A stretch of DNA of 64,000 nt from a virus: IMG/VR virus record IMGVR_UViG_3300037337_000170, positions 64,648 through 128,647 of that record. The stretch is one strand, 5' to 3'. The notes under the pieces are model-generated. The model was given only the letters and a program-made list of their open reading frames with translations, was not told the DNA's origin and did no database searches. The position numbers and the translations under genes were made by a program. Below, in pieces: positions 2,415 to 64,000 of this stretch (position 1 is the stretch's first letter; each line of letters opens with the position of its first letter).

Positions 2415-3599
2415 ATGAGCAATTCACAAAAATTATCACAATTGGTGCCTGGTGGTAACACTCCTATTCCGGTCAATAAGGGCGGCACCGGTACGGCATC
2501 ATTGACTGGGCTTGTAAAAGGTAATGGTACTGGTGCATTAACTGCAGCAGTATCTGGTACTGATATTAAGACCGTTAATGGTGTAACTTTTCTTGGCTCT
2601 GGTGATATTGCAGTACAAGTTCCATTGGTTTCTGGTACTAATATTCGCACAGTTAATGGTGCATCATTATTGACTGCTGGCAATTTGCAACTTGGTGCAT
2701 CCCTAGTAGGATCTGCTCGTACTGCTAATACAGCATTAGGTATAGCCGATAATTCTGCCTTAATTGATATCACCAGTGGCACGTTTACGCAAACATTCTC
2801 TGCCGCAGCAACGCTGGGCAGCGGTTGGTTCTGCTACATCCGCAACTCAGGCACAGGTGACATCACGCTTGATCCGAACGCTTCGGAGTTAATTGACGGC
2901 TTGACCAGTTATGTGATGTATCCCGGCGAAGTGCGGCTGGTGCAGTGCGATGGGGTGGCGCTGAGGAGTGTGGTGTTGACGGCGTTTGCCAGAACGTTTA
3001 TTACCTCGGGGACGTTTATTAAGCCACCGGGTTATTCCGTCATTTTCACCGAACTATGGGCTGGTGGTGGCGGCGGCGGCAAAGGTACGAGTTATACGAC
3101 GGCTGGGAACGGCGGCGCGTATATGACCCGACCTGTGATGGCCAGCACTATCCCCCCGACGGTGCTTGTAACTGTAGGAGCCGGCGGCACACCCGCTTCT
3201 GTAAATACTGCATCGGGCACCGCTGGCGGCGTATCCACACTAGGAACCTTGGTGAGCACAGACTCTGTGTCTGATTCGCGCGGGGGCAATCCGGGGCAAG
3301 CATATCCAGACATTCAAGGTACGTTTACTGGGGGGCGTTCAGCCACGTTCAGCACCGGGTCTACGACTTTGGCCGGGTCCAGTATTTTCGGCGGTGGGGC
3401 TGGAGGTTCATTTAACTTAAATGCAACCACAATTGTGCCACCCGGAGTTAGTAATTTTGGCGGTTCTGGGGGCTCAGCAGGTAATGCGGTAAGTGGGTCC
3501 GATGGAATTATTCCCGGCGGCGGAGGTGGAGTTACGCGCACAGGGCCTTTATCTGGCGCGGGCGCCCGCGGTGAAGTTCGTATCTGGGGAGTCGCATAA
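2415..3599 (+). CDS. Tail fibre protein with glycine-rich C-terminal domain
   Basis: PVNKGGTG motif, two SGTxIxTVNG repeats, ITLDPNASELIDG domain, Gly-rich tail ending GARGEVRIWG. Confidence 0.75.
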   Translation: MSNSQKLSQLVPGGNTPIPVNKGGTGTASLTGLVKGNGTGALTAAVSGTDIKTVNGVTFLGSGDIAVQVPLVSGTNIRTVNGASLLTAGNLQLGASLVGSARTANTALGIADNSALIDITSGTFTQTFSAAATLGSGWFCYIRNSGTGDITLDPNASELIDGLTSYVMYPGEVRLVQCDGVALRSVVLTAFARTFITSGTFIKPPGYSVIFTELWAGGGGGGKGTSYTTAGNGGAYMTRPVMASTIPPTVLVTVGAGGTPASVNTASGTAGGVSTLGTLVSTDSVSDSRGGNPGQAYPDIQGTFTGGRSATFSTGSTTLAGSSIFGGGAGGSFNLNATTIVPPGVSNFGGSGGSAGNAVSGSDGIIPGGGGGVTRTGPLSGAGARGEVRIWGVA

Positions 3600-3997
3600 T
3601 GCGCGCACACATCATTACGGGCGGCATTGTCGCCAACACCATCGAAGTCGAATCACTCGACTTTCTTCCCGGCCTGATCGCTGCGACTGAGGGCACCATT
3701 GGCGACCTCTACGCTAATGGCGTGTTCAGCAAGCCGCCTACACAGCCGACTGCTGTCCCATACTCAGTCACTCGTAGACAAGCCAAGCATGCACTACTAC
3801 TAGCAGGTCTATTAGGTAATGTCCAACCGGCACTTGATGCTATTGCAGATCCGGTTCAAAAAACAATAATGCAAATTGAATGGGACGATAGTCAGGAATT
3901 TGAGCGTAACCGCCCTAGCCTAATCGCTATTGGTACGGCATTAGGTCTAGATTCTACTGAACTAGATGATCTATTCATTACTGCCAGCGGCTTATGA
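3599..3997 (+). CDS. Tail fibre assembly protein
   Basis: VPYSVTRRQAKHAL...IEWDDSQEFER...LDDLFITA pattern typical of fibre chaperones. Confidence 0.65.
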   Translation: MRAHIITGGIVANTIEVESLDFLPGLIAATEGTIGDLYANGVFSKPPTQPTAVPYSVTRRQAKHALLLAGLLGNVQPALDAIADPVQKTIMQIEWDDSQEFERNRPSLIAIGTALGLDSTELDDLFITASGL

Positions 3998-3998
3998 C

Positions 3999-4092
3999 CC
4001 ACTTACCGAACAACTGGAAGACATAGTCTATTATATCCAAGAAACTTAGAACCTAAAATAAACTTGGGTTCTAAGTTGTAATAATTTGTACA
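3999..4092 (-). promoter_or_regulatory. Repeated orphan promoter element, copy 1 (candidate origin)
   Basis: Minus strand TGTACAA-N4-TTACA-N13-GTTTATT-N21-TATAAT followed by conserved ATGTCTTCCAGTTGTTCGGTAAGTGG. Confidence 0.65.
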
Positions 4093-4095
4093 CAA

Positions 4096-4848
4096 ATGGC
4101 CATTATCGCATCACGACAAAACTTAAAAGAATACTGCCTAAGGCGCCTAGGCGCACCATTAGTGCAGATTGACATTACCGATGAGTCAATGGATGATGCT
4201 ATTGATGACTGCCTGTCCTTTATGCAGGAATATTATTTCGATGGGTCAGATAGATTCTTCTATGGTCATCAAGTAACACAACTCGACATTGATAATAAGT
4301 ATATTACGTTACCGCTCTACATCTGGGGTGTTAATGAGGTATTCAATGTTACCAACACAAGTGCTTCTCAAATGAGCATTTTCGATGTTGAATATCAAAT
4401 GAGAGCGTCCGATCAATTTAGGGCTATTAGTACTGGCTCTGGTGGGTTAGTCTATTATACCCAGATGATGACTACTCTATCCATGATGAACGAAATTCTT
4501 AATGTCAAGAAACAATTCAGATTCAACCGTAATAGTGATAAAATCTATATCGACATGAACTGGAATAGTAGGGTAAATATTGGCACATGGATAATGCTTG
4601 ATTGCTATGCGGTTATTGATCCTAACGAGAACAGTAAGTTCTGGAATAATCACGCATTTAAAGAAATTGTTACGGCTAGGTTTAAAATGCAATGGGCTAT
4701 GGCTTATTCCAAGTTCATGAACATTCAATTACCTGGTGGTGTACAAATTGATGGACGAGATAGTTATGCTACTGCCAAATCAGAATATGATGAACTAGCT
4801 GATGATATTATGAATAATAGTAGCCCAACAGGAATTTATTATGGTTGA
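4096..4848 (+). CDS. gp13: Neck protein gp13
   Basis: LKEYCLRRLGAP and QLPGGVQIDG motifs; synteny. Confidence 0.92.
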   Translation: MAIIASRQNLKEYCLRRLGAPLVQIDITDESMDDAIDDCLSFMQEYYFDGSDRFFYGHQVTQLDIDNKYITLPLYIWGVNEVFNVTNTSASQMSIFDVEYQMRASDQFRAISTGSGGLVYYTQMMTTLSMMNEILNVKKQFRFNRNSDKIYIDMNWNSRVNIGTWIMLDCYAVIDPNENSKFWNNHAFKEIVTARFKMQWAMAYSKFMNIQLPGGVQIDGRDSYATAKSEYDELADDIMNNSSPTGIYYG

Positions 4849-10155: not shown

Positions 10156-12354
10156 ATGTTTTCATTATCACCCTCTGTAACTGTACGTGAAGTAGACCTA
10201 ACTTCAGTTGTGCCAGCTGCCTCAACTTCTGTAGGTGGTGTAGTAATCGATGCGGCCTGGGGCCCTGTAATGGATACCACCACTATTGATTCTGAATCAA
10301 CTCTAGTTCAACGACACGGCAAACCCAATGACTTCAATGCTAGTTCATGGATGGTTGCTGCCAACTTTTTAGCATATAGTAATAATTGTTTAGTAGTTCG
10401 TACAGATACTACCAACCAGCGTAATGCAGTATCAGCTCTATCATTTAGTTTGTTTTCCGTAGCCCCGGGAACTGCCGGGTTAGGTTATACTTCTACTGGC
10501 GCCAATGCGGTGTCAGTTACTGTGGCAGCCCCAGTGCAAGGTATTACTGCGGTAGTTGAAGCTGTGGTAACAGATGGTGGAATAACCAGCTTTAATATCG
10601 TTAACCCTGGTTCTGGATATGATGTAGTTCCAACTATTACTATTAATGACGGTTCTGGTTCAGGTGCGACCCTTGGCGCAATTGAAGTAATTCAGGGCGG
10701 CGTAAAAATTAATAATGAAAGTGATTACGAAAATCTTTACTCAAATGGCGAAGCTGTAGTTGGAGAGTTTGCAGCCAAGTACCCTGGTGCTCTAGGCAAT
10801 AGTTTAGCTGTATCTGTCTGTGATGGCGCTAAGGCAGGTCGCGTTACAGGTATCGTAGTTCTTACTGCAGGTGATTCATACACCTCAGTTCCAACAGTTA
10901 CAATTTCTGCTCCAGCAGGATCAGGAACTCAGGCTACAGCTATTGCTGTATTATCTGGCAGCACAACTGGGACCGTCACAGGTATCGTTATCACTTCAGC
11001 AGGCAGCGGTTATACCAGCGCCCCAGTGGTAAGTTTGGTTGGTGGAACTCCTACAACTGTGGCCACCCTTGGGGTTGTTTCAGTTCAAATGGTTAGCCCA
11101 TTTTCCATCTGGGAATATAACAATTTCTTTGATGGTGCACCAAATACCTCAACGTTTGCTTCCTCTAATCAATCTACAAATGACGAATTACACGCGGTAG
11201 TAATCGATACAAATGGCCGTTGGTCTGGTGTCGCTGGAACTGTGCTAGAAACCTTTGCATTTCTTTCAAAAGCTTCTGATGGTAAAAAGGAAGACGGCTC
11301 AAACGCATACTATAAAAATGTATTGAATACCCAATCCAAGTATGTCTACTGGATGGATCATCCAGTTAATGGTACCAATTGGGGTCAATTAGCCAATTCC
11401 GTGAATTTCGGGATCCTCGGTGTTTTTACAAGAACCCTAGCCGGCGGTGTGGATCACTTCACCTCTACGGATGGCCAGAAGATTCGTGCATTTGATCTAT
11501 TCAGTAATGCAGAAACATTAGATGTTAGTCTTCTAATGTGCGGTAAGGCTTCAGCCACAGTAGCCAATTATGTAGTACAAAATATTGCTGAAACCCGTAA
11601 AGATTGTGTGGCATTTATTTCTCCACTCGATCTGTCTGGTAATATTCTTATTGGTAATACCTCAGACATTGCAGAAAAATTAATTGCTTTCCGTAATGTA
11701 CTACCATCAAGTTCATATATGGTTATTGATACTGGCTACAAATACCAATACGACAAGTACAATGACAAATATCGTTGGGTGCCATTAAACGGGGATATTG
11801 CAGGTCTATGTGCTCGTACTGACGAGACCAATGACCCATGGTTCTCTCCAGCAGGTCTGAATCGTGGCTCTATTAAGAATGTGGTCAAACTTGCATATTC
11901 TCCAGTTAAGACTGATCGTGATAATCTATATAAAGCCGGTATTAATCCAGTTGTTTCATTCCCAGGTCAGGGCGTGGTTCTATATGGTGATAAAACTGGA
12001 CTAGCTAAGCCAAGTGCATTTGATCGTATCAATGTACGCCGTCTGTTTATTACTCTTGAAAAATCAATTGCCACCGCAGCAAAATTTCAACTATTTGAAT
12101 TCAATGATGCGATTACTCGTGCCAACTTTGTATCAACAGTCACACCATTTCTTCGTGATGTACAAGGTCGACGGGGCATCTATGAGTTTAGGGTTGTGTG
12201 CGATGAGACCAATAATACACCCAACATTATTGACACAAATCAATTCATCGCAAGTATTTTCATCAAACCAGCTCGCAGTATCAATACAATTGAACTAAAC
12301 TTCGTGGCGGTTCGTACCGGTGTGAGTTTTGAAGAAATTGCTGGTTCAGTTTAA
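10156..12354 (+). CDS. gp18: Tail sheath protein gp18
   Basis: SPSVTVREVDLT, WGP, PWFSPAG.NRG, GDKT, SAFDRINVRRLF and KPARSIN motifs. Confidence 0.96.
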   Translation: MFSLSPSVTVREVDLTSVVPAASTSVGGVVIDAAWGPVMDTTTIDSESTLVQRHGKPNDFNASSWMVAANFLAYSNNCLVVRTDTTNQRNAVSALSFSLFSVAPGTAGLGYTSTGANAVSVTVAAPVQGITAVVEAVVTDGGITSFNIVNPGSGYDVVPTITINDGSGSGATLGAIEVIQGGVKINNESDYENLYSNGEAVVGEFAAKYPGALGNSLAVSVCDGAKAGRVTGIVVLTAGDSYTSVPTVTISAPAGSGTQATAIAVLSGSTTGTVTGIVITSAGSGYTSAPVVSLVGGTPTTVATLGVVSVQMVSPFSIWEYNNFFDGAPNTSTFASSNQSTNDELHAVVIDTNGRWSGVAGTVLETFAFLSKASDGKKEDGSNAYYKNVLNTQSKYVYWMDHPVNGTNWGQLANSVNFGILGVFTRTLAGGVDHFTSTDGQKIRAFDLFSNAETLDVSLLMCGKASATVANYVVQNIAETRKDCVAFISPLDLSGNILIGNTSDIAEKLIAFRNVLPSSSYMVIDTGYKYQYDKYNDKYRWVPLNGDIAGLCARTDETNDPWFSPAGLNRGSIKNVVKLAYSPVKTDRDNLYKAGINPVVSFPGQGVVLYGDKTGLAKPSAFDRINVRRLFITLEKSIATAAKFQLFEFNDAITRANFVSTVTPFLRDVQGRRGIYEFRVVCDETNNTPNIIDTNQFIASIFIKPARSINTIELNFVAVRTGVSFEEIAGSV

Positions 12355-19123: not shown

Positions 19124-20419
19124 TTATTTCAGTAGAAATACCTTGTGGCCACAATCCCAAAACTTCCTATATTTTGCTGCGAACATAGATTCATCCTCGG
19201 TTCCATCTATAAATTTCGAACCTAACAGAGTTTTCAATTTAGACTTTTGTGTCTGATAACGGGTTAGGCATTTACCACCGTTTGTCCAGAAATAACCTGG
19301 TTCGGTTGTTCTAATGTGCTCGAAGCCGGCCAAAGAGTATACCTTACCGGTGCCATATCTTTTATCACAATAACTCAGAATAGACCCAACATAAGTTGAT
19401 CGAAAGTGAGATAAAAGCTTCTGAAAGCCACCAATAACATTATAGCCTGTTTCGGATGCAAATCTAATAAGCTCCCAATCTGCTTCCACAGTAAATCGCG
19501 GCTTCTTAAATGATACAACCTGCATAAGTTGGCCTTCGAATAATAGCCCTAGATTGACTTTTGCTACTGCATTGCCAGAAATATGATTTTTATCCATGAA
19601 CTCTTTTGTTTGTTTGGCTGTAAGTTCTTGCACAATACATTTTCTAGCATAGAGTTTATTACCAAGACCAAGCCTGGAGTTAATCATAGACATAACAAGT
19701 TCTTGCTTTTCTGTAATTTCCTTATCAGTAAAATGCATTAACAGGATACCACTTTTTTCTACACTATCACTTTTATGTAGATGTTTGTGTTTAATTTCTC
19801 TACTAATCGCCTTGCTACTAGCCGAGTGCCAATAGAGCCCATTTATTTCTATGGCGAGATTGTTGTTTGGAAAATAAATATCGAGGTGTTTTGGTTTTAT
19901 TACTGTTTTATCATTTAACAGCATAGCCCCGGAAAAAACCTTTTTGAGTTCATTGACCAAAGTTATTTCTACAAAGCTTCTCTGAAAATCATCATTACGT
20001 TCGATATTATGCCCATCAACAAATGCTAGAATCGTCCCGTAGTGAACATCAAGTTCTTTACCTAGTTCTTGTGATGATCTACCCTTTGTTTTATATTCCT
20101 CAAATACCCAAGTCTTATCCGATAGTTTTTTGAGTACTTCTTCCGAAAGTTTAGATTTTTTCCAAAGATGTTTTAGATCGGGTCTTTGAGAATTGAATCT
20201 ATAACCGGTTTTAGCCAATAAGGTCTCTTCCCGTTTTTTCTGTGATGATTTTTCATTTCTATTTGCTATGGAGTCCTTCATAATAAATGCTAGGTCCTTA
20301 TTCTTACACTTGTTCGAGCAGTAGTTGGACATAGTAACAGTACCACCATTAATATTAACCAAACATGGATCTCCGCACATTTTACATTCGCTATGTGGTT
20401 GATCTGTAAGAATCATCAT
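19124..20419 (-). CDS. Hef-like homing endonuclease (Vsr/PD-(D/E)xK domain plus GNAT-like C-terminus); N-terminus probably frameshifted, with original start at 20571
   Basis: LDIYFP...AIEINGLYWHS, YARKC, WELIRFAS...GGFQKL, SYCDKRY and WDCG motifs. Confidence 0.75.
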   Translation of the reverse strand: MMILTDQPHSECKMCGDPCLVNINGGTVTMSNYCSNKCKNKDLAFIMKDSIANRNEKSSQKKREETLLAKTGYRFNSQRPDLKHLWKKSKLSEEVLKKLSDKTWVFEEYKTKGRSSQELGKELDVHYGTILAFVDGHNIERNDDFQRSFVEITLVNELKKVFSGAMLLNDKTVIKPKHLDIYFPNNNLAIEINGLYWHSASSKAISREIKHKHLHKSDSVEKSGILLMHFTDKEITEKQELVMSMINSRLGLGNKLYARKCIVQELTAKQTKEFMDKNHISGNAVAKVNLGLLFEGQLMQVVSFKKPRFTVEADWELIRFASETGYNVIGGFQKLLSHFRSTYVGSILSYCDKRYGTGKVYSLAGFEHIRTTEPGYFWTNGGKCLTRYQTQKSKLKTLLGSKFIDGTEDESMFAAKYRKFWDCGHKVFLLK

Positions 20420-20599: not shown

Positions 20600-20634
20600 A
20601 TTATATATCGTGTAAGATATTCTCCAAAATAAAC
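20600..20634 (-). promoter_or_regulatory. Middle-type promoter GTTTATT-N22-TATAAT for the endonuclease gene
   Basis: Reverse complement matches the motif seen before replication genes; lies 29 nt upstream of ATG 20571. Confidence 0.55.
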
Positions 20635-21794: not shown

Positions 21795-22229
21795 ATGACA
21801 CTTAGTGAATTGAAATTGCAATGGGCCCGCGATTGTATTATTGATGAAAATGATCTTGGTGGCGCCGCCATAAAGACAAGTAATTTACATTCATTTTACA
21901 TCAATGAAAATATTAACATTAAATTACAATTAGTAAAACTTCAAATGGAAGTGGCCACACTTCAGGTTGCTCGTGGCAGATACTTTCGTGGCGAGATGCC
22001 AAGTGCTGAGTTAAAAGAACGTGAATGGGAACAATGGCACTACAAAACCCTTAGAGCGGATATTGGTGATTTAATCTTAGCATCGCCTGATGTACAAATT
22101 CTATTGGGGCGTCAGGAATATCTAAAAATCATTATCGGCTTTTTAGATTCAGTTCTAGGTGAGATCAAAGCCCGCTCATTTAATATTAGAAATGCTATAG
22201 ACTGGGCCAAGTTCAGAGCAGGCAATTGA
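21795..22229 (+). CDS. uvsY: Recombination mediator UvsY
   Basis: W..D..ID...L, LHS.Y and R.F.I.NAIDW.KF.AG motifs. Confidence 0.9.
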   Translation: MTLSELKLQWARDCIIDENDLGGAAIKTSNLHSFYINENINIKLQLVKLQMEVATLQVARGRYFRGEMPSAELKEREWEQWHYKTLRADIGDLILASPDVQILLGRQEYLKIIIGFLDSVLGEIKARSFNIRNAIDWAKFRAGN

Positions 22230-22230
22230 A

Positions 22231-22324
22231 CCACTTACCGAACAACTAGAATACATAGTTTATTATATCCAGAAAAGTTCGAGCCCGAAATAAACACGAC
22301 CTATTCCATGTAACACTTTGTACA
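22231..22324 (-). promoter_or_regulatory. Repeated orphan promoter element, copy 2 (candidate origin, next to uvsY)
   Basis: Same architecture and spacing as 3999-4092. Confidence 0.65.
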
Positions 22325-22437
22325 AGTCATTTGTCAGGAATTCTTGGAATACGAGAAACCGCATAAATAATGTAATAGAATCAACAACTTAGCCGCGCGT
22401 TTTCCGAAAGCTGTGGGGATCCCCACCAAATTATATT

Positions 22438-23970
22438 ATGTCAAAAATCACAGTTACTTCTTATAATGAAACACATGTCCGTGTAAACTGTGATGACTAC
22501 GGGGTGGAAATGGAACTTCAGGAATATTTTACCTTTAGTGTCCCTGGTGCTAAATTTACACCCAAGTTTAAATCTGGTCAATGGGATGGAAACATTAAGC
22601 TACTCAACACCCGTAACAAATTATTGTACACTGGGTTAATTTCACTAGTACATAAATTTGCTAGATCCAATGGTTATGAGATTGATATTGCCAGAGAGTT
22701 AAATCCCACGATCAAGATTACCAGAGCCGAAGTATCGGATTACATGCACGGGCTTAATCTAACCGGTCGGGGTGTTCCAATTCAACTTAGAGATTACCAG
22801 ATTGATGCTGTTTATAAGGCTCTTTCAAATAAGAGGTTAATTCTAGTAAGTGCTACTGGCTCTGGCAAGTCATTGATTTTATATTCGATCATTCGCTATT
22901 GCTTAGACAAAGAACAGTCTATTGTTCTTATTGTACCGACTGTAAGTTTGGTGAATCAGATGGTTAGCGACTTTAAGGATTACAGTACGGCTAATGGTTT
23001 TGATGTAGATAAACATATCCACGGCTTATATTCTGGCAAGGATCGTATTTTTAATAAGCCTGTTACAATTTCAACTTGGCAGACATTGGCTAGTATGCAC
23101 AAGAGTGATTCAAAGAACTATTTGGCACTAACTGCAAATACCGATGTATTGCTAGCCGACGAAGCGCACACATTAAAAGCGGCTGTTGTTTCTGCGACCA
23201 TTGAAGGGTTCGTCAATACAAGCCATAGAATTGGAACCACCGGTACCCTACACGATGCACTTTGTAATAAGCTAGTGTTAATAGGTCTTTTGGGTCCGGC
23301 TCACGAGATTATATCTGCTTCCGAATTGATTGCAGCTGGTCAGGCTGTTCCAATCGACATTAAAGTTATTATTCTCAAACATCCTTCAGAGTTCTGTAAG
23401 ATGTTAAAGTCAATGGATTACAAAGAAGAACTTCAACAGATTATCTCTAATCCTGCACGTAATGCCTTTATTGCCAACCTCGCAAAATCATTATCTGGTA
23501 ATACATTAATTTTATACCGCTTTGTTGCTACCCATGGGCAAATTTTATATGATCTCATAAAAGAAAATGTAGGTGACACAAGAGCAGTTTATTTTATTCA
23601 CGGTGGTGTAGAAGTAGAGGAACGGGATAGAATTCGTCTCATTTTGGAAAATGATAAGAGTGCCATTGTTGTAGCCACTGAGTCCCTAATGTCGACAGGA
23701 ATTAATATCCCTAGTCTAGAAAATTTAATCTTTGCCTGCCCTGGTAAATCTGCAATTCGTATTCGTCAATCAATTGGAAGAACACTTCGATTAAAAGAAG
23801 GTAAGACTCATGCTACCATATATGACATTGCCGACGATTATCGAGCCTCACCAAAAGCTAGAAATAACATAACTCTTAATCATCTTAATGATAGACTAGC
23901 CATTTATGTAAAAGAGGATTTCAAATACTCAATTCGTAGACTAGAGTTAAAATATGATTATCTTGGCTGA
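22438..23970 (+). CDS. uvsW: RNA-DNA/DNA helicase UvsW
   Basis: FTF.VPG.KF...WDG, RDYQ, SATGSGKS, DEAH, GTTGT and QSIGR.LR motifs. Confidence 0.95.
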   Translation: MSKITVTSYNETHVRVNCDDYGVEMELQEYFTFSVPGAKFTPKFKSGQWDGNIKLLNTRNKLLYTGLISLVHKFARSNGYEIDIARELNPTIKITRAEVSDYMHGLNLTGRGVPIQLRDYQIDAVYKALSNKRLILVSATGSGKSLILYSIIRYCLDKEQSIVLIVPTVSLVNQMVSDFKDYSTANGFDVDKHIHGLYSGKDRIFNKPVTISTWQTLASMHKSDSKNYLALTANTDVLLADEAHTLKAAVVSATIEGFVNTSHRIGTTGTLHDALCNKLVLIGLLGPAHEIISASELIAAGQAVPIDIKVIILKHPSEFCKMLKSMDYKEELQQIISNPARNAFIANLAKSLSGNTLILYRFVATHGQILYDLIKENVGDTRAVYFIHGGVEVEERDRIRLILENDKSAIVVATESLMSTGINIPSLENLIFACPGKSAIRIRQSIGRTLRLKEGKTHATIYDIADDYRASPKARNNITLNHLNDRLAIYVKEDFKYSIRRLELKYDYLG

Positions 23971-40480: not shown

Positions 40481-40741
40481 ATGAATAGCAGTATATTTTC
40501 AGTTAGCCAAACCGTGCAGGTTACGGCAATCATCGAACTTGATATCAATGGCACTAAGTTAAAACTTAGTCTTGAAGATGCTAAAAAGTTATATTCCGCT
40601 CTCGGCCCCATTGTTGAACCAGTGAAATCTGGTAATCTTACATATCCACCAGGAGTTAGATCCAGTAATGCTTTTGAGAAAAATACTCCATATTTCCCAT
40701 TTGATATATCGTTACAAGGTAAAAATACTATAGTATGCTAA
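40481..40741 (+). CDS. Hypothetical protein
   Basis: ORF with AGGT RBS. Confidence 0.55.
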   Translation: MNSSIFSVSQTVQVTAIIELDINGTKLKLSLEDAKKLYSALGPIVEPVKSGNLTYPPGVRSSNAFEKNTPYFPFDISLQGKNTIVC

Positions 40742-41382
40742 TATTTTTATCAACAGTATTTTATCAGTTCATTTATGCACTGATCCTACCCGGGCTTCTA
40801 TTGGGCATCGGTGCAATTATTTTAAGTTTGTTTCTGCCAAACTTTGCTTATAAGAAACATGTTTTTATTATCGGTGTAGTTGCCATAGTATTTTTTACAT
40901 TTTTTTCTGGTAAATATACTTCAGAGACAAAGTGGAAAGCTAAATGGCAGCTTCATGAAACCCAGCAGGCACTTGAAATAGCCAAATTAGAAGCCGCCGC
41001 CGCTTATATAACTACTGAAACCGTAGTTATGTATGTAGATAAAGTCAAAGTAGTTGAAAAACTCAAAACCGAATATAGGACAGTTTATGTTGACAAGTAT
41101 ATCACGACCGAAATTGATAATCAGTATGGTTTTTTGCCTGATACTTTCATCATGCTCCACGATTCAGCCGCAAAGGGCCTTGTTCCCGACACCACCCGAA
41201 GCGCTGATGAAATCACCACAGAAGCTTCAGGAATTAAGCTCTCTACCGCGACAAAAGTAATAGTAGATAATTACTTGACATGCACCGCGACAGAACTTCA
41301 ACTTTTATCCCTACAAAAGTGGGTAAGAGACCAGCAACGTCTGCATGATGGTGGGCTAGATGCTGGTAAAAATCATCGGTGA
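40735..41382 (+). CDS. Inner-membrane spanin (Rz-like)
   Basis: N-terminal TM segments, coiled coil, YVDKVKVV, LHDSAA and NY..C....QL..LQ.W motifs. Confidence 0.7.
   Translation: MLIFLSTVFYQFIYALILPGLLLGIGAIILSLFLPNFAYKKHVFIIGVVAIVFFTFFSGKYTSETKWKAKWQLHETQQALEIAKLEAAAAYITTETVVMYVDKVKVVEKLKTEYRTVYVDKYITTEIDNQYGFLPDTFIMLHDSAAKGLVPDTTRSADEITTEASGIKLSTATKVIVDNYLTCTATELQLLSLQKWVRDQQRLHDGGLDAGKNHR
41087..41260 (+). CDS. Outer-membrane spanin lipoprotein (Rz1-like), embedded in Rz
   Basis: Signal peptide with lipobox LSSC followed by Pro-rich FPTPPEALMKSP, in an alternative frame. Confidence 0.7.
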   Translation: MLTSISRPKLIISMVFCLILSSCSTIQPQRALFPTPPEALMKSPQKLQELSSLPRQK

Positions 41383-41443
41383 ATGTGACTTTCCTAGGCT
41401 TAGACCTTAGGTATATCTCCACAAACCTAGCTAGATACTATGT

Positions 41444-41518
41444 CGAACAACTGGAAGACATAATCTATTATATCCATAAAATTCGATTTAAAAAATAAAC
41501 TTGTGAGATAAGATGTAA
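41444..41518 (-). promoter_or_regulatory. Repeated orphan promoter element, copy 3
   Basis: TTACA-N13-GTTTATT-N21-TATAAT-...ATGTCTTCCAGTTGTTCG on the minus strand; back-to-back with the gp55 promoter. Confidence 0.6.
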
Positions 41519-41533
41519 AGGTCTGTCTCATAA

Positions 41534-41567
41534 GTTTATTTTTTGTACTCCAGATATGTGTTATAAT
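41534..41567 (+). promoter_or_regulatory. Middle-type promoter GTTTATT-N21-TATAAT (gp55)
   Basis: Same motif and spacing at 49545, 50214, 53869, 57751, 59325 and 61682. Confidence 0.65.
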
Positions 41568-41587: not shown

Positions 41588-42175
41588 ATGGAACTTAAAC
41601 TCAAACCTACCGTCGATGCTGCGAATCCCCGCTACTACCTAGACAAGGTAAAAATGCGTGAAGCTCTTTTTGAGTACAAAGAGCAGTGTGATGCTGCCCT
41701 AGCAAAAGGCGAGGAACAGCCTGGGGTGTCAAACTACCTAGGCGAGTGTTTCTTGCTTATAGCCAGAGGCATTGGTCATAAATTTAACTTTCGCAACTAC
41801 TCATTCTTAAACGATATGATTTCGGATGGGGTACACGTTTGCCTAAAGTACGTTCGGTCTTATGACCCTGCAAGGGTAAATGCAACTACAGGGCTGCCAA
41901 CATCCCCCTTGAGTTATTTCAGTCAAGCAATTCATTTTAGCTTCATTAACCGTATTAATATAGAGGCAAAGCAAAGCCGAATTAAGCGTGCAATGATATA
42001 TTCTGCCGATATTGATTCATTCAGTCTTCAAGATGATGAAGATGCCGGCGATTTTAGAATGAATCTAAATGAATTTATTTCTGGTCTAGGTACCAATGAG
42101 GTTGAAGCGATGGTTAGCAAAAAACCAAAAAAATCAGATAATGATGCTCCTAATATGTTCGATGATTTTGTGTAA
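41588..42175 (+). CDS. gp55: Late-transcription sigma factor gp55
   Basis: YLGECF..IA, NF.NYSF..DMISDG and P.SYFSQ...FSFINRI..E.KQ motifs. Confidence 0.93.
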   Translation: MELKLKPTVDAANPRYYLDKVKMREALFEYKEQCDAALAKGEEQPGVSNYLGECFLLIARGIGHKFNFRNYSFLNDMISDGVHVCLKYVRSYDPARVNATTGLPTSPLSYFSQAIHFSFINRINIEAKQSRIKRAMIYSADIDSFSLQDDEDAGDFRMNLNEFISGLGTNEVEAMVSKKPKKSDNDAPNMFDDFV

Positions 42176-44922: not shown

Positions 44923-44925
44923 CAT

Positions 44926-44968
44926 TTTACTTTTATTCTTGTCTGTGTTATAATAAACACATACCAAC
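44926..44968 (+). promoter_or_regulatory. Early (sigma70-type) promoter TTTACT-N17-TATAAT, repeated element
   Basis: Identical to 45177-45219; 12 similar copies in the window. Confidence 0.8.
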
Positions 44969-45166: not shown

Positions 45167-45176
45167 GCTATAAAAT

Positions 45177-45219
45177 TTTACTTTTATTCTTGTCTGTGTT
45201 ATAATAAACACATACCAAC
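45177..45219 (+). promoter_or_regulatory. Early promoter repeat
   Basis: TTTACT 45177, TATAAT 45200. Confidence 0.8.
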
Positions 45220-47394: not shown

Positions 47395-47397
47395 AAT

Positions 47398-47440
47398 TTT
47401 ACTTTTATTCTGTGGCGTGTTATAATAAACACATACCAAC
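47398..47440 (+). promoter_or_regulatory. Early promoter repeat
   Basis: TTTACT 47398, TATAAT 47421. Confidence 0.8.
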
Positions 47441-52657: not shown

Positions 52658-53071
52658 ATGACTTATCTATTAACCGACTCCTATCATTGGACTGAGTCAT
52701 GTCTCTATGAAATTATCCTTCCTGATCCTGATGCCTTTTTAAAAATAAAAGAAACCTTATCTAGAATAGGAATTGCTTCAAAAAAAGAAAAGATTCTCTG
52801 CCAGACCTGCCATATTTTACACCGCCGTGGCAAATATTATATTATGAATTTCAAAGAGCTTTTTGCATTAGACGGTAAACCAACCAATATTGAATACAAT
52901 GATATTGCCAGACGGAATACTATCGCAAATCTCCTAGAGCAATGGGGCCTATGTAAGGTAGTACAAAAATCAGACTTGATTTTGACCACCAATTGTATTA
53001 AAATTATTCCTTTCGCACAGAAGTCTCAGTGGACTTTGACTGTAAAGTACACTATGGGCAAGAAAATCTAA
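52658..53071 (+). CDS. regA: Translational repressor RegA
   Basis: FLKIKETLSRIGIA, QTCHILH..G.YYI..FKELF.LDG, RRNTIA.LL..WGL and KY..G motifs. Confidence 0.95.
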   Translation: MTYLLTDSYHWTESCLYEIILPDPDAFLKIKETLSRIGIASKKEKILCQTCHILHRRGKYYIMNFKELFALDGKPTNIEYNDIARRNTIANLLEQWGLCKVVQKSDLILTTNCIKIIPFAQKSQWTLTVKYTMGKKI

Positions 53072-53988: not shown

Positions 53989-56517
53989 ATGAACACTGCG
54001 AAAAATAACCGATTCTATACTTCTATTGCCAAAAGTGGACAAAATATTCTAGTTCGCGAGGTTGTTGATGGAATTCACTCTCTACGAAAAGATATTTGGT
54101 CACCTACCTACTATCTTAAAGATGCAAGCAATAATTCTGGCCTGAAGACGCTTTATGGTGATTCAGTTAAGGCTGTTAAGCCAGGAAATATGTATGAAGC
54201 CAGGGAATGGTGCAAACAGTACACCGGTATTTCTGGCGTAGAAGTATTTGGTCAACAGAATGAAATACTGCAATATGCGAATGAATACCAATTTACTGGA
54301 TGGGATTTCAAACATATTAAAGCATACTCAATTGATATTGAAACCGGGTCGGCCGACGGAAATTTTCCTGACCCAAAATATGCCCTCGGTGAGGTTCAAC
54401 TAATTACTCTTCAGGATATGCACACCAAGCGTTGCTATACCTGGGGGACTAAGAAATATACACCGACTGGAAAGCATAAGGTCGAAACGGCTTATACTCA
54501 ATGCTCAGATGAAAAAACACTACTGAAAATGTTCCTAATATTCTGGGAACAAAAACAACCTGATGTTATTACTGGCTGGAATTGTGATGGCTTCGATATG
54601 CCGTACCTGGTTAATCGACTTAATATCATACTTGGTCCCGACTTTACCAAGAAGTTATCTCCTTGGGGTCAGGTTGATTTCAAATTGAGAATGTTTCAGG
54701 GCCGAGAAGAATGTGAATATTCTATCGTTGGTGTGTCTGTCCTAGATATGATGCTGTTAATGAAAAAATTCACCACCAATGCTCGTGAGAGTTGGAGTCT
54801 TGGCTCGGTTGCCCAGGAAGAATTAGGTACTACAAAACTCGAAAATCCCGAGGAATCATTTGATGCATTCTATCGTAATGCGTTTGATGAATTCGTAGAG
54901 TACAACATTGTTGATACTGAATTGGTTAGCAAGATTAATGATAAACTAAAATTAATCCAGCTGGCATGTACTATGGCTTATGAAGCTAGGATTAACTATA
55001 CTGATGTATACAGCCCCGTTAAAACTTGGGATGCTATCATGCATAATCAACTTTTAAGTATGGGGATTGTAACACCACCAAGGAAGAGTAGCGGTATAAC
55101 TTCACAGATTGAGGGGGCCTATGTTAAAACTCCGGTCCCTGGTATGTATAGGCAGATTATTTCCTTTGATTTTTCATCGCTCTATCCTAGCATTATGCGC
55201 GCATTAAATCTTTCGCCAGAAACATATCTGGGGCAAACAGAAAGCACGGTTGAGTCGTGTCTAGCTGGAACTTATCCTAAGACAGATTCGGAAGTCTGTA
55301 TTGCTCCTAATGGTTCTATGTATTCAAAAAAGTCCCTAGGTATTATTCCTCTAGTCATTAAACTGTATATGACAAAGCGGCGAGACGCTAAAAACTTAAT
55401 GCTTGACATTGAGCGGCAGATTGAACAATTAAAGACAACTACCAATGACAAAAAAGAAATTTTCATCTTATCACAGCGTTATTCAGAGCTGAATAACATT
55501 CAAACTGCATATAAGCTAAATTTAAATTCACTTTATGGCTCGTTAGCCAACGCCGGGTTTCGTTACTTTAATCCAGATATTGCAGAATCAATTACCTTAA
55601 CTGGTCAGCTATTACTTCGAACTTTAGAGGCTAGGTTTGACAAAGAGTTTTCTGATGTAATGAAGATAGATTGTACTGGTACTATGTTCTATGCCGATAC
55701 CGATAGTGCGATAATGACACTTGATAAGGTAGTCAAAAAATATGCACCCAACAATACTGTTGAGCAGAATATCAAGCTAATTGAGAAGTTGGCTAATGAT
55801 AAAATGTCGCCGGTTATCACAAAAATTACTCAGGATATTGCGACCAAACTAAATGTGTATGAAAATACATTTAATATGAAGCTTGAGATGGCAGCATCAC
55901 ATCTGGTCCAACTTGGCAAGAAAAAATACTTCGCGCGGGTCTATTCCTCTGAAGGTGTATCCTATGCAAAGCCAAAATTGAAAATTATGGGAATGGAGAT
56001 TATTAAGTCATCTACCCCTAAGGTAATCCAAAAAGCTTTAAAAGACTCAATTGAAATTATTCTTGACAGTACCGAATCAGAAATGCAAGAATACATCGCA
56101 AAGGTAAAAGCAGATTTTGTTAACTTGACAGTTGAACAAATTGCTTTCCCGCGTGGGCTGTCTAACCTAGCCGAATATTCTGACCCTAATACTATTTTCG
56201 GAAAGAAGACACCTATTCATGTTAGAGCAGCCCTACTCTACAACCATCTGCTAGAAAAAAATGGCCTAACCAAAAAATATGAAATTTTAAAAGAAGGGAA
56301 CAAACTTAAGTTTATCTACCTAGCAGAACCAAATCCATTACACCAAAACATCATCGGGTGGCCTGTGGACAACAAGCTACCAACTGAGTTCGGTCTACAC
56401 AAATATATCGATGTTGATCTTCAGTTTGAAAAGGTATTTCTGAATGCTGTTCAACTTATGATCGAGCCCATGAACTGGAAGGCCGAGCACAGGAATGATC
56501 TTTCTGAATTCTTTTAA
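53989..56517 (+). CDS. gp43: Family B DNA polymerase gp43 (in-frame ATGs also at 53938 and 53968)
   Basis: DIETG, GWN..FD.PY, DFSSLYPS, K...NSLYG and YADTDS motifs. Confidence 0.97.
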   Translation: MNTAKNNRFYTSIAKSGQNILVREVVDGIHSLRKDIWSPTYYLKDASNNSGLKTLYGDSVKAVKPGNMYEAREWCKQYTGISGVEVFGQQNEILQYANEYQFTGWDFKHIKAYSIDIETGSADGNFPDPKYALGEVQLITLQDMHTKRCYTWGTKKYTPTGKHKVETAYTQCSDEKTLLKMFLIFWEQKQPDVITGWNCDGFDMPYLVNRLNIILGPDFTKKLSPWGQVDFKLRMFQGREECEYSIVGVSVLDMMLLMKKFTTNARESWSLGSVAQEELGTTKLENPEESFDAFYRNAFDEFVEYNIVDTELVSKINDKLKLIQLACTMAYEARINYTDVYSPVKTWDAIMHNQLLSMGIVTPPRKSSGITSQIEGAYVKTPVPGMYRQIISFDFSSLYPSIMRALNLSPETYLGQTESTVESCLAGTYPKTDSEVCIAPNGSMYSKKSLGIIPLVIKLYMTKRRDAKNLMLDIERQIEQLKTTTNDKKEIFILSQRYSELNNIQTAYKLNLNSLYGSLANAGFRYFNPDIAESITLTGQLLLRTLEARFDKEFSDVMKIDCTGTMFYADTDSAIMTLDKVVKKYAPNNTVEQNIKLIEKLANDKMSPVITKITQDIATKLNVYENTFNMKLEMAASHLVQLGKKKYFARVYSSEGVSYAKPKLKIMGMEIIKSSTPKVIQKALKDSIEIILDSTESEMQEYIAKVKADFVNLTVEQIAFPRGLSNLAEYSDPNTIFGKKTPIHVRAALLYNHLLEKNGLTKKYEILKEGNKLKFIYLAEPNPLHQNIIGWPVDNKLPTEFGLHKYIDVDLQFEKVFLNAVQLMIEPMNWKAEHRNDLSEFF

Positions 56518-57356
56518 TGAGTCACTTAAAGCTGTTTAGATATGCCGGTAGTAAGAACAAATATTTGGATATTATACTACCTCTAATAGATACAAAAAAA
56601 CATCTGATAGAGCCATTTCTGGGTTCTGCCGCAGTATCCCTAAATGTTAACAATAAAACTTTAGCATTTGACTATAATGAAAGATTAATAGACTTGTTTA
56701 ATGGCTTTAAGATTATAAACATCGAACAGTATATTAAACTCTATAATTGTAAAGACCCAGAACTTATCCCTAATGATCATCAATCATACTATAGCTATAG
56801 GAATTATTATAACCTAAACTATGATTCTTTGAATCTACCACAAAAGGCAGTTCATCAACAAAAACTATTCCAGTGTTGTTTGAATTCTCTTGCTAGATGG
56901 GGCCCTAATGGATTTAATCAAAGCTTTGGTTGTCGAAGCCATTCAATGCTCGACCTTTGTATGCTTAAGAAAATCATAGAGAGATGTCAGAATATAGACT
57001 TTAAGCAGGCCGACTTCTTCAACTTGGGTGCTCTTGATAATAAGGATACCACTTGGTTTTTAGACCCACCCTATTACAAAAACCCGATAAATTACAAATC
57101 TAATTTTAACAATTTAAAGACAAAAATCTTTATTGGTATGATAGAAGAGTTTCATGGCAATGTAATTTACACAGATACTATTCATGAATATAATGCCCAT
57201 TTATTAACTTCATGGAACTGTGTAAAGCTAGATAATCTTTGGACTACAAGTACTAAACCAAGAAAGGATAATACATCAGTGGACAATCCCGAATACATAT
57301 TCTGTAATTTTGAATTCCAAAAGCAAACTACTAGTGATCTCTCTGAATTCTTTTAA
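56517..57356 (+). CDS. dam: DNA adenine methyltransferase (Dam-like)
   Basis: FRYAGSK, EPFLGS.AV, FN..FG and LDPPY motifs. Confidence 0.85.
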   Translation: MSHLKLFRYAGSKNKYLDIILPLIDTKKHLIEPFLGSAAVSLNVNNKTLAFDYNERLIDLFNGFKIINIEQYIKLYNCKDPELIPNDHQSYYSYRNYYNLNYDSLNLPQKAVHQQKLFQCCLNSLARWGPNGFNQSFGCRSHSMLDLCMLKKIIERCQNIDFKQADFFNLGALDNKDTTWFLDPPYYKNPINYKSNFNNLKTKIFIGMIEEFHGNVIYTDTIHEYNAHLLTSWNCVKLDNLWTTSTKPRKDNTSVDNPEYIFCNFEFQKQTTSDLSEFF

Positions 57357-61651: not shown

Positions 61652-61750
61652 TGTACAAAGAGTTACTCTAAGTAGGTGTCTGTTTATTTTTCTAGCCAGA
61701 TTTGGTGAATATAATATATTATGCTCTCCAGTCATTGGTTGTTCGTAAGG
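61652..61750 (+). promoter_or_regulatory. Repeated orphan promoter element, copy 4 (plus strand)
   Basis: TGTACAA-N4-TTACT-N14-GTTTATT-N21-TATAAT...ATGCTCTCCAG...TTGTTCGTAAG. Confidence 0.55.
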
Positions 61751-61934
61751 TCATTCTACCTTGTTGGGTAGATGTTTAGTATTCTTGAGGCATGCCTAGG
61801 ACAGTCTTAGCCGCTGTTTAAGCGGGTTTATGCTTTAGCCGATGTTGACCTAGACACTCTACAAGCGACGCTCACACATGATTTTACTTTTATTCTGGGC
61901 GGTGATATAATAACTTATCAACACGGAAACATAA

Positions 61935-63664: not shown

Positions 63665-64000
63665 TTACTTTTATTACTAGATGTGTTATAATAACTTATG
63701 TTCAGGGGGAATGGAAGAATATTTAGGAAGATTGGTTGGTTTTGATGTTTAGAGTTCTATGGCTGGGTATATGTTAACCTGGTAGACGGCCCGCTTAGAC
63801 GGTGGGAGGCTGCAAGTTCGAATCTTGCTACTCAGACAGAAAACTTTAAACATCAAAACCAACCAATCTCCCAAAATGTTTTACTTTTATTACTAGATGT
63901 GTTATAATAACTTATGTTCAGGGGGAATGGAAGAATATTTAGGAAGATTGGTTGGTTTTGATGTTTAGAGTTCTATGGCTGGGTATATGTTAACCTGGTA
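63661..64000 (+). repeat. 216-bp tandem repeat (second copy truncated by window end)
   Basis: 63661-63784 is identical to 63877-64000. Confidence 0.9.
63763..63836 (+). tRNA. tRNA-Pro-like cloverleaf with aberrant anticodon loop (UUAGACG); pseudo-tRNA or tRNA mimic
   Basis: Acceptor CTGGGTA/TACTCAG+A, D-loop AACCTGGTA, anticodon stem CCCGC/GTGGG, T-arm GCAAG-TTCGAAT-CTTGC; no encoded CCA. Confidence 0.65.

Follow-up and report, generated by a model that had tools for sequence, protein, structure and literature searches.

The window, the whole stretch of 64,000 nucleotides analysed here, makes up the second half of one contig, which has 128,647 bp and 39.8% G+C and is recorded as linear and about 73% complete. 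The runs listed as containing the contig are DNA runs labelled salt lake metagenome, with no RNA run among them. The source of the contig is a divergent T4-like phage with genes for UvsY, UvsW, a gp55-like late sigma factor, a neck protein, the sliding clamp, DNA polymerase, UvsX, a replicative helicase, clamp-loader subunits, RegA, SSB, and a primase-like protein, and with virion genes. Nearly all large ORFs in the window are on the plus strand. With UvsW as the query, the nearest cultured relatives were cyanomyoviruses at only about 42% identity, and a megablast search with 4 kb matched no close relative among cultured phages. The epimerase gene has matches of 51-60% across many phyla. Several genes, among them uvsY, uvsW, and regA (starting at 21795, 22438, and 52658; coordinates are those of the window unless genome positions are named) begin after ..TTTATATTATG or ..TTTATTATG and have no Shine-Dalgarno sequence. 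A gene for a D12-class N6-adenine DNA methyltransferase (56517-57356, plus strand) is found between the DNA polymerase and UvsX genes.

Four copies of an orphan promoter cassette are found in the window, on the strands and at the positions given by the original prediction. Copy 1 (3999-4092, minus strand) consists of a dyad, TGTA-N8-TACA, at 4077-4092, a GTTTATTT box at 4056-4063, a -10 element, TATAAT, at 4030-4035, and a leader at 3999-4024 that begins at the predicted start, 4024. It lies in a 98-bp gap between a 132-aa gene (3599-3997) and the neck/adaptor gene (4096-4848). The gene region beside it has a tail-fibre-assembly match, in agreement with the predicted location next to tail-fibre genes. 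Copy 2 (22231-22324, minus strand) has its dyad at 22309-22324, GTTTATTT at 22288-22295, the -10 element at 22262-22267, and a leader at 22231-22256 with the predicted start at 22256. As had been predicted, it is located between uvsY (21795-22229) and uvsW (22438-23970), in a gap of 208 bp. A perfect 14-bp palindrome, GTGGGGATCCCCAC (22404-22417), precedes the start of uvsW by about 20 nt and is changed in the related contigs L004 and L005. Copy 3 (41436-41500, minus strand) has GTTTATTT at 41493-41500 and the -10 element at 41467-41472, no dyad, and a leader that is conserved from the predicted start at 41461 to about 41444. It lies in a gap of 205 bp and has a partner promoter (41534-41567, plus strand) for the gp55-like late sigma gene (41588-42175). 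Copies 1 to 3 are oriented against the flanking plus-strand genes. Copy 4 (61652-61753, plus strand) has a dyad variant, TGTA-N8-TACT, at 61652-61667, GTTTATTT at 61682-61689, the -10 element at 61710-61715, and, from the predicted start at 61721 to about 61753, a leader of a second type with a 7-nt duplication. The small-gene region past copy 4 carries a single tRNA-Ser gene (anticodon AGA; 63763-63837, plus strand).

The orphan-specific stretch TATAATANAYTATGNNNTCYAGT, which extends from the -10 element into the transcript, has exactly four copies in the window, where 0.00 are expected. A profile made from all copies was compared with the 128.6-kb contig and gave exactly six matches (E 3.5e-32 to 5.3e-23; the next match has E 1.6). 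The number four, which had been predicted, is therefore correct for the window but not for the contig, where two more copies exist at genome positions 11.7 kb (minus strand; copy 5) and 28.3 kb (plus strand; copy 6), with predicted starts at 11691 and 28290, respectively. Directly past copy 6 and its early promoter there is a 345-aa DUF7487 gene (genome 28414-29451, minus strand; 2415-3452 in L052). This gene is missing in the close relatives L011 and L014, where it corresponds to a 1.1-kb indel.

The motif GTTTATT-N21-TATAAT had been put forward as the mark of the orphan copies. It has eight matches in the window against 0.02 expected from shuffled sequences, and it turned out to represent a general promoter class of the phage (class B), which is also found 5-43 nt upstream of replication genes (110 nt for the SSB gene). 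The class B targets are dCMP deaminase/primase, SSB, gp55, an 83-aa ORF, the clamp, DNA polymerase, UvsX, and the helicase. A class B promoter with a 22-nt spacer is also found upstream of a minus-strand HNH gene. This gene encodes a 431-aa homing endonuclease (19124-20419, minus strand) and is flanked by virion genes; its promoter (20600-20634, minus strand) is of the GTTTATTT-N21-TATAAT type, the 22-nt spacer being that after GTTTATT, and a small upstream ORF is present. The possibility that the orphans are stumps of this gene was rejected, because the HNH promoter region has no leader-like block.

Class A, a highly conserved family and probably the early promoter class, has the consensus TTTTACTTTTATTCT..TGnTATAAT (TTTTACTTTTATTCT-N8-11-TATAAT with TGn). 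In a scan of the plus strand, 27 copies were found before small genes (e.g., at 44925-44954, 45176-45205, 47397-47426, and 61882-61911). Hairpins of -10 kcal/mol or below precede 4 of the 27, the same share as in random 49-mers (16%). A third promoter class, TATAAATA, is found upstream of virion genes. Judged by its sequence, the promoter of the orphan cassettes belongs to the class of the replication genes. Note that this class is 'middle-like' by association only, since MotA and AsiA were not found (MotA_activ, MotCF, and AsiA: no match at E<=1 on this contig of about 73% completeness).

Every copy of the cassette has the form GTTTATTT-N20-(A/T)ATAAT, followed by a predicted start at the A of ATG or ATA and a conserved leader of 26-33 nt. 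The GTTTATTT box is at about -40. There is no -35 element, and the -10 region reads TGG-A-TATAAT. After GTTTATTT, the order is a free spacer ending in TTT..TGG, then ATATAAT, A-N-A-Y-T, and ATG (ATA in copy 6). The context A(C/T)TATG is common to the orphan start sites and the starts of uvsY, uvsW, and regA. All copies share the leader core CCAG..GTTGTTCG(G)TAA, which as RNA would read CCAG..GUUGUUCG(G)UAA. The type 1 leader is ATGTCTTCCAGTTGTTCGGTAAGTGG. In the type 2 leader, found in copies 4 and 5 and in the related contigs L009 and L013, seven nucleotides are duplicated in tandem: CCAGTTGYTGGTTGTTCGTAATGT.

A leaderless mini-ORF that starts at the conserved ATG and encodes a conserved peptide would be one explanation of this block. 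An ATG exists at the predicted start in five of the six genome copies, and its context resembles that of the uvsW, uvsY, and regA starts. We regard this explanation as scarcely credible, however. Copy 6 has ATA, and the 7-nt duplication that separates the two leader types leaves no common reading frame. Stops follow after 7 to 29 codons (after 7, 10, 16, and 26 codons for the ATG-started peptides of the window copies). Orthologs differ non-synonymously, and the third positions in GTTGTTCG never vary. A peptide does not account for the conservation, given the 7-nt indel, the differing stop positions, and the non-synonymous changes. The 26-33 nt shared by all copies are thus a conserved untranslated 5' leader with no conserved ORF, as the original prediction had it.

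The dyad TGTA-N8-TACA is present in copies 1, 2, and 6, and the TACT variant in copy 4. The longer upstream motif TGTACAA-N4-TTAC was confirmed in copies 1, 2, and 4; copy 3 does not have it. In the genome, TGTA-N8-TACA occurs at 5 sites against 2.2 expected, and all three of the intergenic ones are within cassettes. The upstream box of the protein-binding type that had been anticipated is present, is private to the orphan units, and is carried by four of the six genome copies. Copies 3 and 5 have no dyad; each is placed back to back with a divergent class B promoter (of gp55 and of deaminase/primase, respectively), which takes up the position of the dyad. The dyad centre is at -60.5 or -61.5 relative to the predicted start, which is the classical position of a class I activator of the CRP type. 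An NtcA site, on the other hand, is usually near -41.5, where it replaces the -35 element. The 16-bp dyad fits GTA-N8-TAC, the site that was used to find NtcA promoters in cyanophages (PMC3037559). It differs from NtcA- and CRP-type promoters in general in being private to the orphan units, and HTH_Crp_2 and cNMP_binding have no match on the contig, indicating that no CRP-family protein is encoded there.

Orthologs of the cassettes were found in contigs from one group of IMG/VR samples: L008 for copy 1; L004 and L005/L010 for copy 2; L009 and L013 for copy 4; L049/L179 and L183 for copy 5; and L011 and L014 for copy 6. Of eight IMG/VR loci with the dyad pattern, seven are real and one (L012) is a chance match. 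None of 29 dyad-plus-box loci in metagenome contigs was real on inspection; L024, for example, passed a loose filter but has neither TATAAT nor a leader. The promoter-only pattern matched three IMG/VR sites, all within coding sequence and with the flanking motifs missing, and these were dismissed as chance. Among at least 182 new block matches examined in leader-block scans of IMG/VR, two have the promoter context and both are copy 5 orthologs. The internal hairpin of copy 4, used as a pattern, matches only the two known contigs. Loose contig ends at copy 1 in four DNA runs were traced to paralogous copies. In distant relatives of UvsW (41% identity), uvsY abuts uvsW with no spacer. Since the orthologs come from one IMG/VR sample group, none of the 29 metagenome loci is real, and the distant relatives have no uvsY-uvsW spacer, the cassette family appears, on these comparisons, to be confined to one clade.

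Comparison with these orthologs shows which parts of the cassette are kept. Among both paralogs and orthologs (L004 and L005 for copy 2) the boxes are conserved while the spacers diverge. Over leader positions +1 to +30, copies 1 and 2 each differ from their orthologs at 1/30, copy 5 at 0-1/30, and copies 4 and 6 at 5/30. L008 keeps the element of copy 1, although its upstream gene is different and the sequence past the leader is unrelated. In some relatives (L004 and the runs X2 and X3), an insertion of 560-570 nt with a 109-aa ORF is found between the copy 2 spacer and uvsW (window 22416-22432; 520-1083 in L004).

Could the cassette act at the DNA level with no RNA function? It might be a mobile or recombinogenic promoter module of the PeSL kind, which inserts itself at junctions between modules or promotes exchange there, or it might be a site, present in several copies, to which a DNA-organising protein binds. 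Where the element ends, homology with relatives is lost (L008, L049, and L014/L011), and L004 and the runs X2 and X3 have an insertion of 567 nt beside copy 2, both as such a module would have it. Fixed boxes with free spacers speak against it, because box-like conservation implies selection on function rather than recent copying. Moreover, the promoter is of class B and not of the early class, the distance between leader core and promoter varies by 7 nt, and the family is restricted to one clade. We therefore consider a pure DNA cassette unlikely. PeSLs, composite promoter-terminator motifs described at indel junctions of T4-type phages (PMC4122927), are a known model for it. Like PeSLs, the cassettes are short, conserved, multi-copy, and intergenic, and are located at indel or replacement junctions between related phages. 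A PeSL, however, is an early promoter plus a stem-loop that flanks expressed ORFs, whereas here a class B promoter and a conserved transcribed leader drive no ORF. The 27 early promoters of the phage itself form a sequence family distinct from the cassettes and, unlike PeSLs, are not as a rule preceded by stem-loops. The hairpins that follow copies 5 and 6 were also considered as PeSL stem-loops and rejected, class A hairpins occurring at a random rate.

The sequences that follow the leaders are of several kinds. In copy 5, a perfect bidirectional terminator follows after 82 nt. In copy 6, a 10-bp hairpin and a T-rich tract follow after about 80 nt; its ortholog in L014 shows a hairpin at the corresponding position, with another sequence. 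Both units would give RNAs of about 80 nt. In the RNA of copy 5 with its terminator, 4 of 85 positions differ from L049; the promoter and upstream region differ at 22 of 112, and past the terminator L049 has an unrelated gene. Copy 4 is predicted to produce a structured non-coding RNA of about 165 nt (61721-61885, plus strand), which ends where the next early (class A) promoter begins. Its body is about 69% identical to that of L013, in otherwise unrelated flanks, and three sequences share two conserved small hairpins in it. Folding of the same three sequences suggests that the copy 4 leader may lie in a long-range helix with leader-distal sequence and perhaps be sequestered. The terminators about 80 nt after two copies and the conserved bodies of copies 4 and 5 point to RNA genes.

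Copies 1 to 3 have no minus-strand terminator within the next 0.6-1 kb. Their predicted transcripts are antisense and enter the 3' ends of neighbouring genes: the 132-aa gene for copy 1, uvsY for copy 2, and a 215-aa gene (40735-41382) for copy 3. The bodies of these RNAs have evolved in the same way as the overlapping coding sequence. It had been predicted that these three copies point antisense into genes; the copies themselves are intergenic, and it is the predicted transcripts that enter the upstream genes. Over the whole family, a promoter, the lack of an ORF, and a conserved 5' block are found in 6/6 copies and strong terminators in 2/6, while one more copy has a structured RNA with a weak end. 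Rfam 15 gave no match at the gathering score in the window, and for the six 401-nt loci the best match had E 0.76, to eukaryotic snoRNA models. Duplexes between the leader and the phage genome reach -22.9 kcal/mol at best; with 10 shuffled queries, the minima range from -21.8 to -27.6.

As judged from sequence, the cassettes are genuine orphan transcription units that are under selection and specific to one clade, with predicted starts, a private operator, and a shared untranslated leader. The most likely explanation, held tentatively and at somewhat less than even chances, is that they form a co-regulated family of non-coding RNAs, comprising two to three discrete small RNAs and three antisense RNAs; RNA-primed replication origins come second. 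The variant replication-gene promoter would drive six stand-alone non-coding units, and the family would be switched on together with the replication genes. The dyad would presumably be read by a dimeric activator or repressor, and transcription would start at the A of the conserved A(C/T)TATG. The common leader would then function as RNA, offering a shared handle or seed to a partner, which may be protein or RNA. Reading of the leader as RNA, rather than by phased DNA contacts, is suggested by the 7-nt shift of the core, the CCAG/CUAG/CCGG variants, and G-C or G-U closing pairs that are wobble-compatible. The three antisense members might also damp late or recombination genes before late transcription. 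Antisense regulation of late genes had been proposed as an alternative to origins; it would apply to three predicted antisense RNAs against late or recombination genes.

Some observations do not fit this explanation well. With their terminator-less transcripts and gene-like body evolution, copies 1 to 3 are unlike classical trans-acting small RNAs. A family of RNAs gives no reason for the over-dispersed spacing described below, and the leader has no better-than-shuffled target in the phage genome. The possible sequestration of the copy 4 leader and the lack of an Rfam match also count against it.

Two other explanations involve the leader RNA. The first is a cis-acting element: positions +1 to +30 might modify the polymerase by pausing or by antitermination of the nut, put, or qut kind, or the orphan promoters, being strong, might be convergent roadblocks that insulate transcription units. 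A conserved element directly after the start with arbitrary sequence downstream would be expected from this, as would terminators after three copies, which could be read through, and copies at the borders of gene modules. But a leader of 26 nt is too short for known put-type structures, and from four of the six copies long antisense transcripts would run through genes, for which no advantage is apparent. A cis-acting role is accordingly improbable. The second is that the leader is an operator or decoy for the translational repressor RegA, the RNAs titrating RegA or being bound by it. RegA is encoded in the window (52658-53071, plus strand; PF01818, E 1.4e-40). Its T4 SELEX core, given as UUGUUAUGUAA in PMC3014915, agrees with UUGUUCGGUAA of the leader at 9 of 11 positions, and copy 5 has UUGUU..AUGUAA. 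This match was found post hoc, however. Translation starts are not enriched in leader-like words (1 against 1.67 expected) or SELEX-like words (3 against 2.02), and the leader does not have the 5' poly(A) tract that RegA sites, described as A+U-rich, carry (PMC3014915). A RegA function is thus very unlikely.

The distances between the copies in the window are 18.2, 19.2, and 20.2 kb, and the even spacing of 18-20 kb that had been reported holds there. Over the contig the gaps are 16-40 kb, with a minimum of 16.5 kb and one gap of 40.4 kb. On a linear contig, a minimum gap of 16.5 kb is larger than expected by chance (P=0.002 for uniform placement; 0.003 for placement among 29 intergenic gaps of at least 90 nt). 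This over-dispersion is limited to the structural/replication half of the genome. The related contig G001, a region of early-type genes 52.6 kb long, has 35 class A promoters and a single cassette copy, which is its only class B promoter. Another related contig, G002, extends 11.8 kb beyond the start of the present contig, and no cassette copy is found in that part. With one copy per 52.6 kb of early region in related contigs, the spacing is not regular genome-wide. From G001 it appears that the early region may exceed 52 kb in this phage clade.

The original prediction had proposed a family of T4-type origins, and the spacing speaks for this explanation. The orphan transcript would stay hybridised as an R-loop through its G/U-rich, C-poor leader, be processed, and prime a leading strand that is extended the same way as the transcript. 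GTT and GCT triplets are frequent in the displaced strand, which would be the entry site for primase and helicase, and the dyad would bind an origin regulator. T4 primase starts at GTT and GCT. The promoter class is that of the replication genes, and therefore origin timing would match the onset of replication. Promoter and leader alone are common to all copies, with arbitrary sequence downstream, and UvsW, a primase-like gene, helicase, SSB, and clamp are all encoded. In relatives, the copies are located at mosaic junctions; a reference cited in PMC3016281 says in its title that the origins of T4 and recombination hot spots coincide. As in oriF and oriG of T4 (PMC3016281), copies are found beside uvsY and a tail-fibre region.

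Other features weaken the origin proposal. The minimal T4 oriF and oriG, as described in PMC3016281, are about 100 bp and combine a middle promoter that requires MotA with an A+T-rich unwinding element. Here such an element is missing in five of the six copies, downstream of which the A+T fraction is 0.50-0.64 (0.58-0.64 at +26 to +75), compared with a genome mean of 0.602 (sd 0.089, 50-bp windows). Only copy 6, at 28.3 kb, is A+T-rich (0.78-0.82), and the stretch in question is the next early promoter. MotA and AsiA are also missing on the contig. T4 origins are described in the same source as sharing no motif (PMC3016281), while the copies here are sequence-conserved. The strong terminators about 80 nt past two copies and the conserved RNA bodies of copies 4 and 5 also speak against origins, as do, in related contigs, the single copy in 52.6 kb of early region and the lack of copies in the 11.8 kb beyond the start of the present contig. 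The C-domain of T4-type RNase H and the N-domain of gp59 had no match on the record, which is about 73% complete; a gp59 control search also gave none. Promoter class, dyad, leader, and spacing thus survive as support for the origin family, and the unwinding element, MotA/AsiA, and terminators count against it. On balance we find it possible but doubtful.

Copies 1 to 3 on the minus strand face plus-strand late clusters, and the plus-strand copy at 28.3 kb faces a minus-strand late cluster (genome 36-41.8 kb) with head-closure, end-protector, tail-tube-like, and baseplate-hub genes. If forks moved along the primer RNA, they would meet late genes head-on, and the discontinuities of the lagging strand would be left on the strand that is not transcribed. 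In T4 late transcription the activating discontinuities must lie in the non-transcribed strand, the polarity that the sliding clamp needs (PMC2988020). That the six cassettes are sequence-defined, co-regulated R-loop origins whose orientation is functional in this way is nevertheless a long shot. A variant in which sliding clamps are loaded directly at the RNA 3' end of the R-loop was rejected, since the polarity would be wrong for minus-strand copies and plus-strand late promoters (PMC2988020).

Whichever explanation is correct, the phage offers a sequence-defined promoter class of replication genes and a six-copy orphan version of it with an operator and an untranslated leader. To our knowledge, T4-type phages outside the enterobacterial group have no MotA/AsiA, and their middle transcription and replication origins are undefined. 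The exact predicted start sites could decide between regulatory RNAs and RNA-primed origins. In the case of origins, the cassettes would provide the first origin consensus in T4-type phages and a handle on the coupling of fork direction to late transcription.

Of the known systems, oriF (ori(uvsY)) and oriG (ori(34)) of T4 resemble the cassettes in being units of about 100 bp around a replication-period promoter, with several per genome, and in having, as proposed here, an untranslated or incidental transcript as the active product. As in T4, one copy is beside uvsY and one beside tail-fibre genes. UvsW, which removes origin R-loops in T4 (PMC3016281), is encoded next to copy 2. Unlike the T4 origins, the cassettes have no MotA/AsiA and no AT-rich element; they have a shared leader of 26-33 nt, a dyad in four copies, and terminators after two. 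The T4 MotA box is near -30 and is combined with a sigma-70 -10 element, whereas GTTTATTT is at about -40 here.

A precedent for the preferred explanation, a family of regulatory RNAs, is found in phage PAK_P3, for which early antisense RNAs over structural genes and small RNAs are described (PMC4933390). Its antisense RNAs and sRNA1/2 are, as those proposed here would be, non-coding transcripts of a virulent phage. The antisense ones are directed over structural or late genes with pre-late timing, and the small RNAs are intergenic, as are the small members here. The present family, known from sequence only, differs from that of PAK_P3 in that six units, 16-40 kb apart, have one promoter architecture and one 5' leader. 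If the transcripts are indeed RNAs of this kind, they would form a phage RNA family of an unusual kind, whose several copies share a 5' module.
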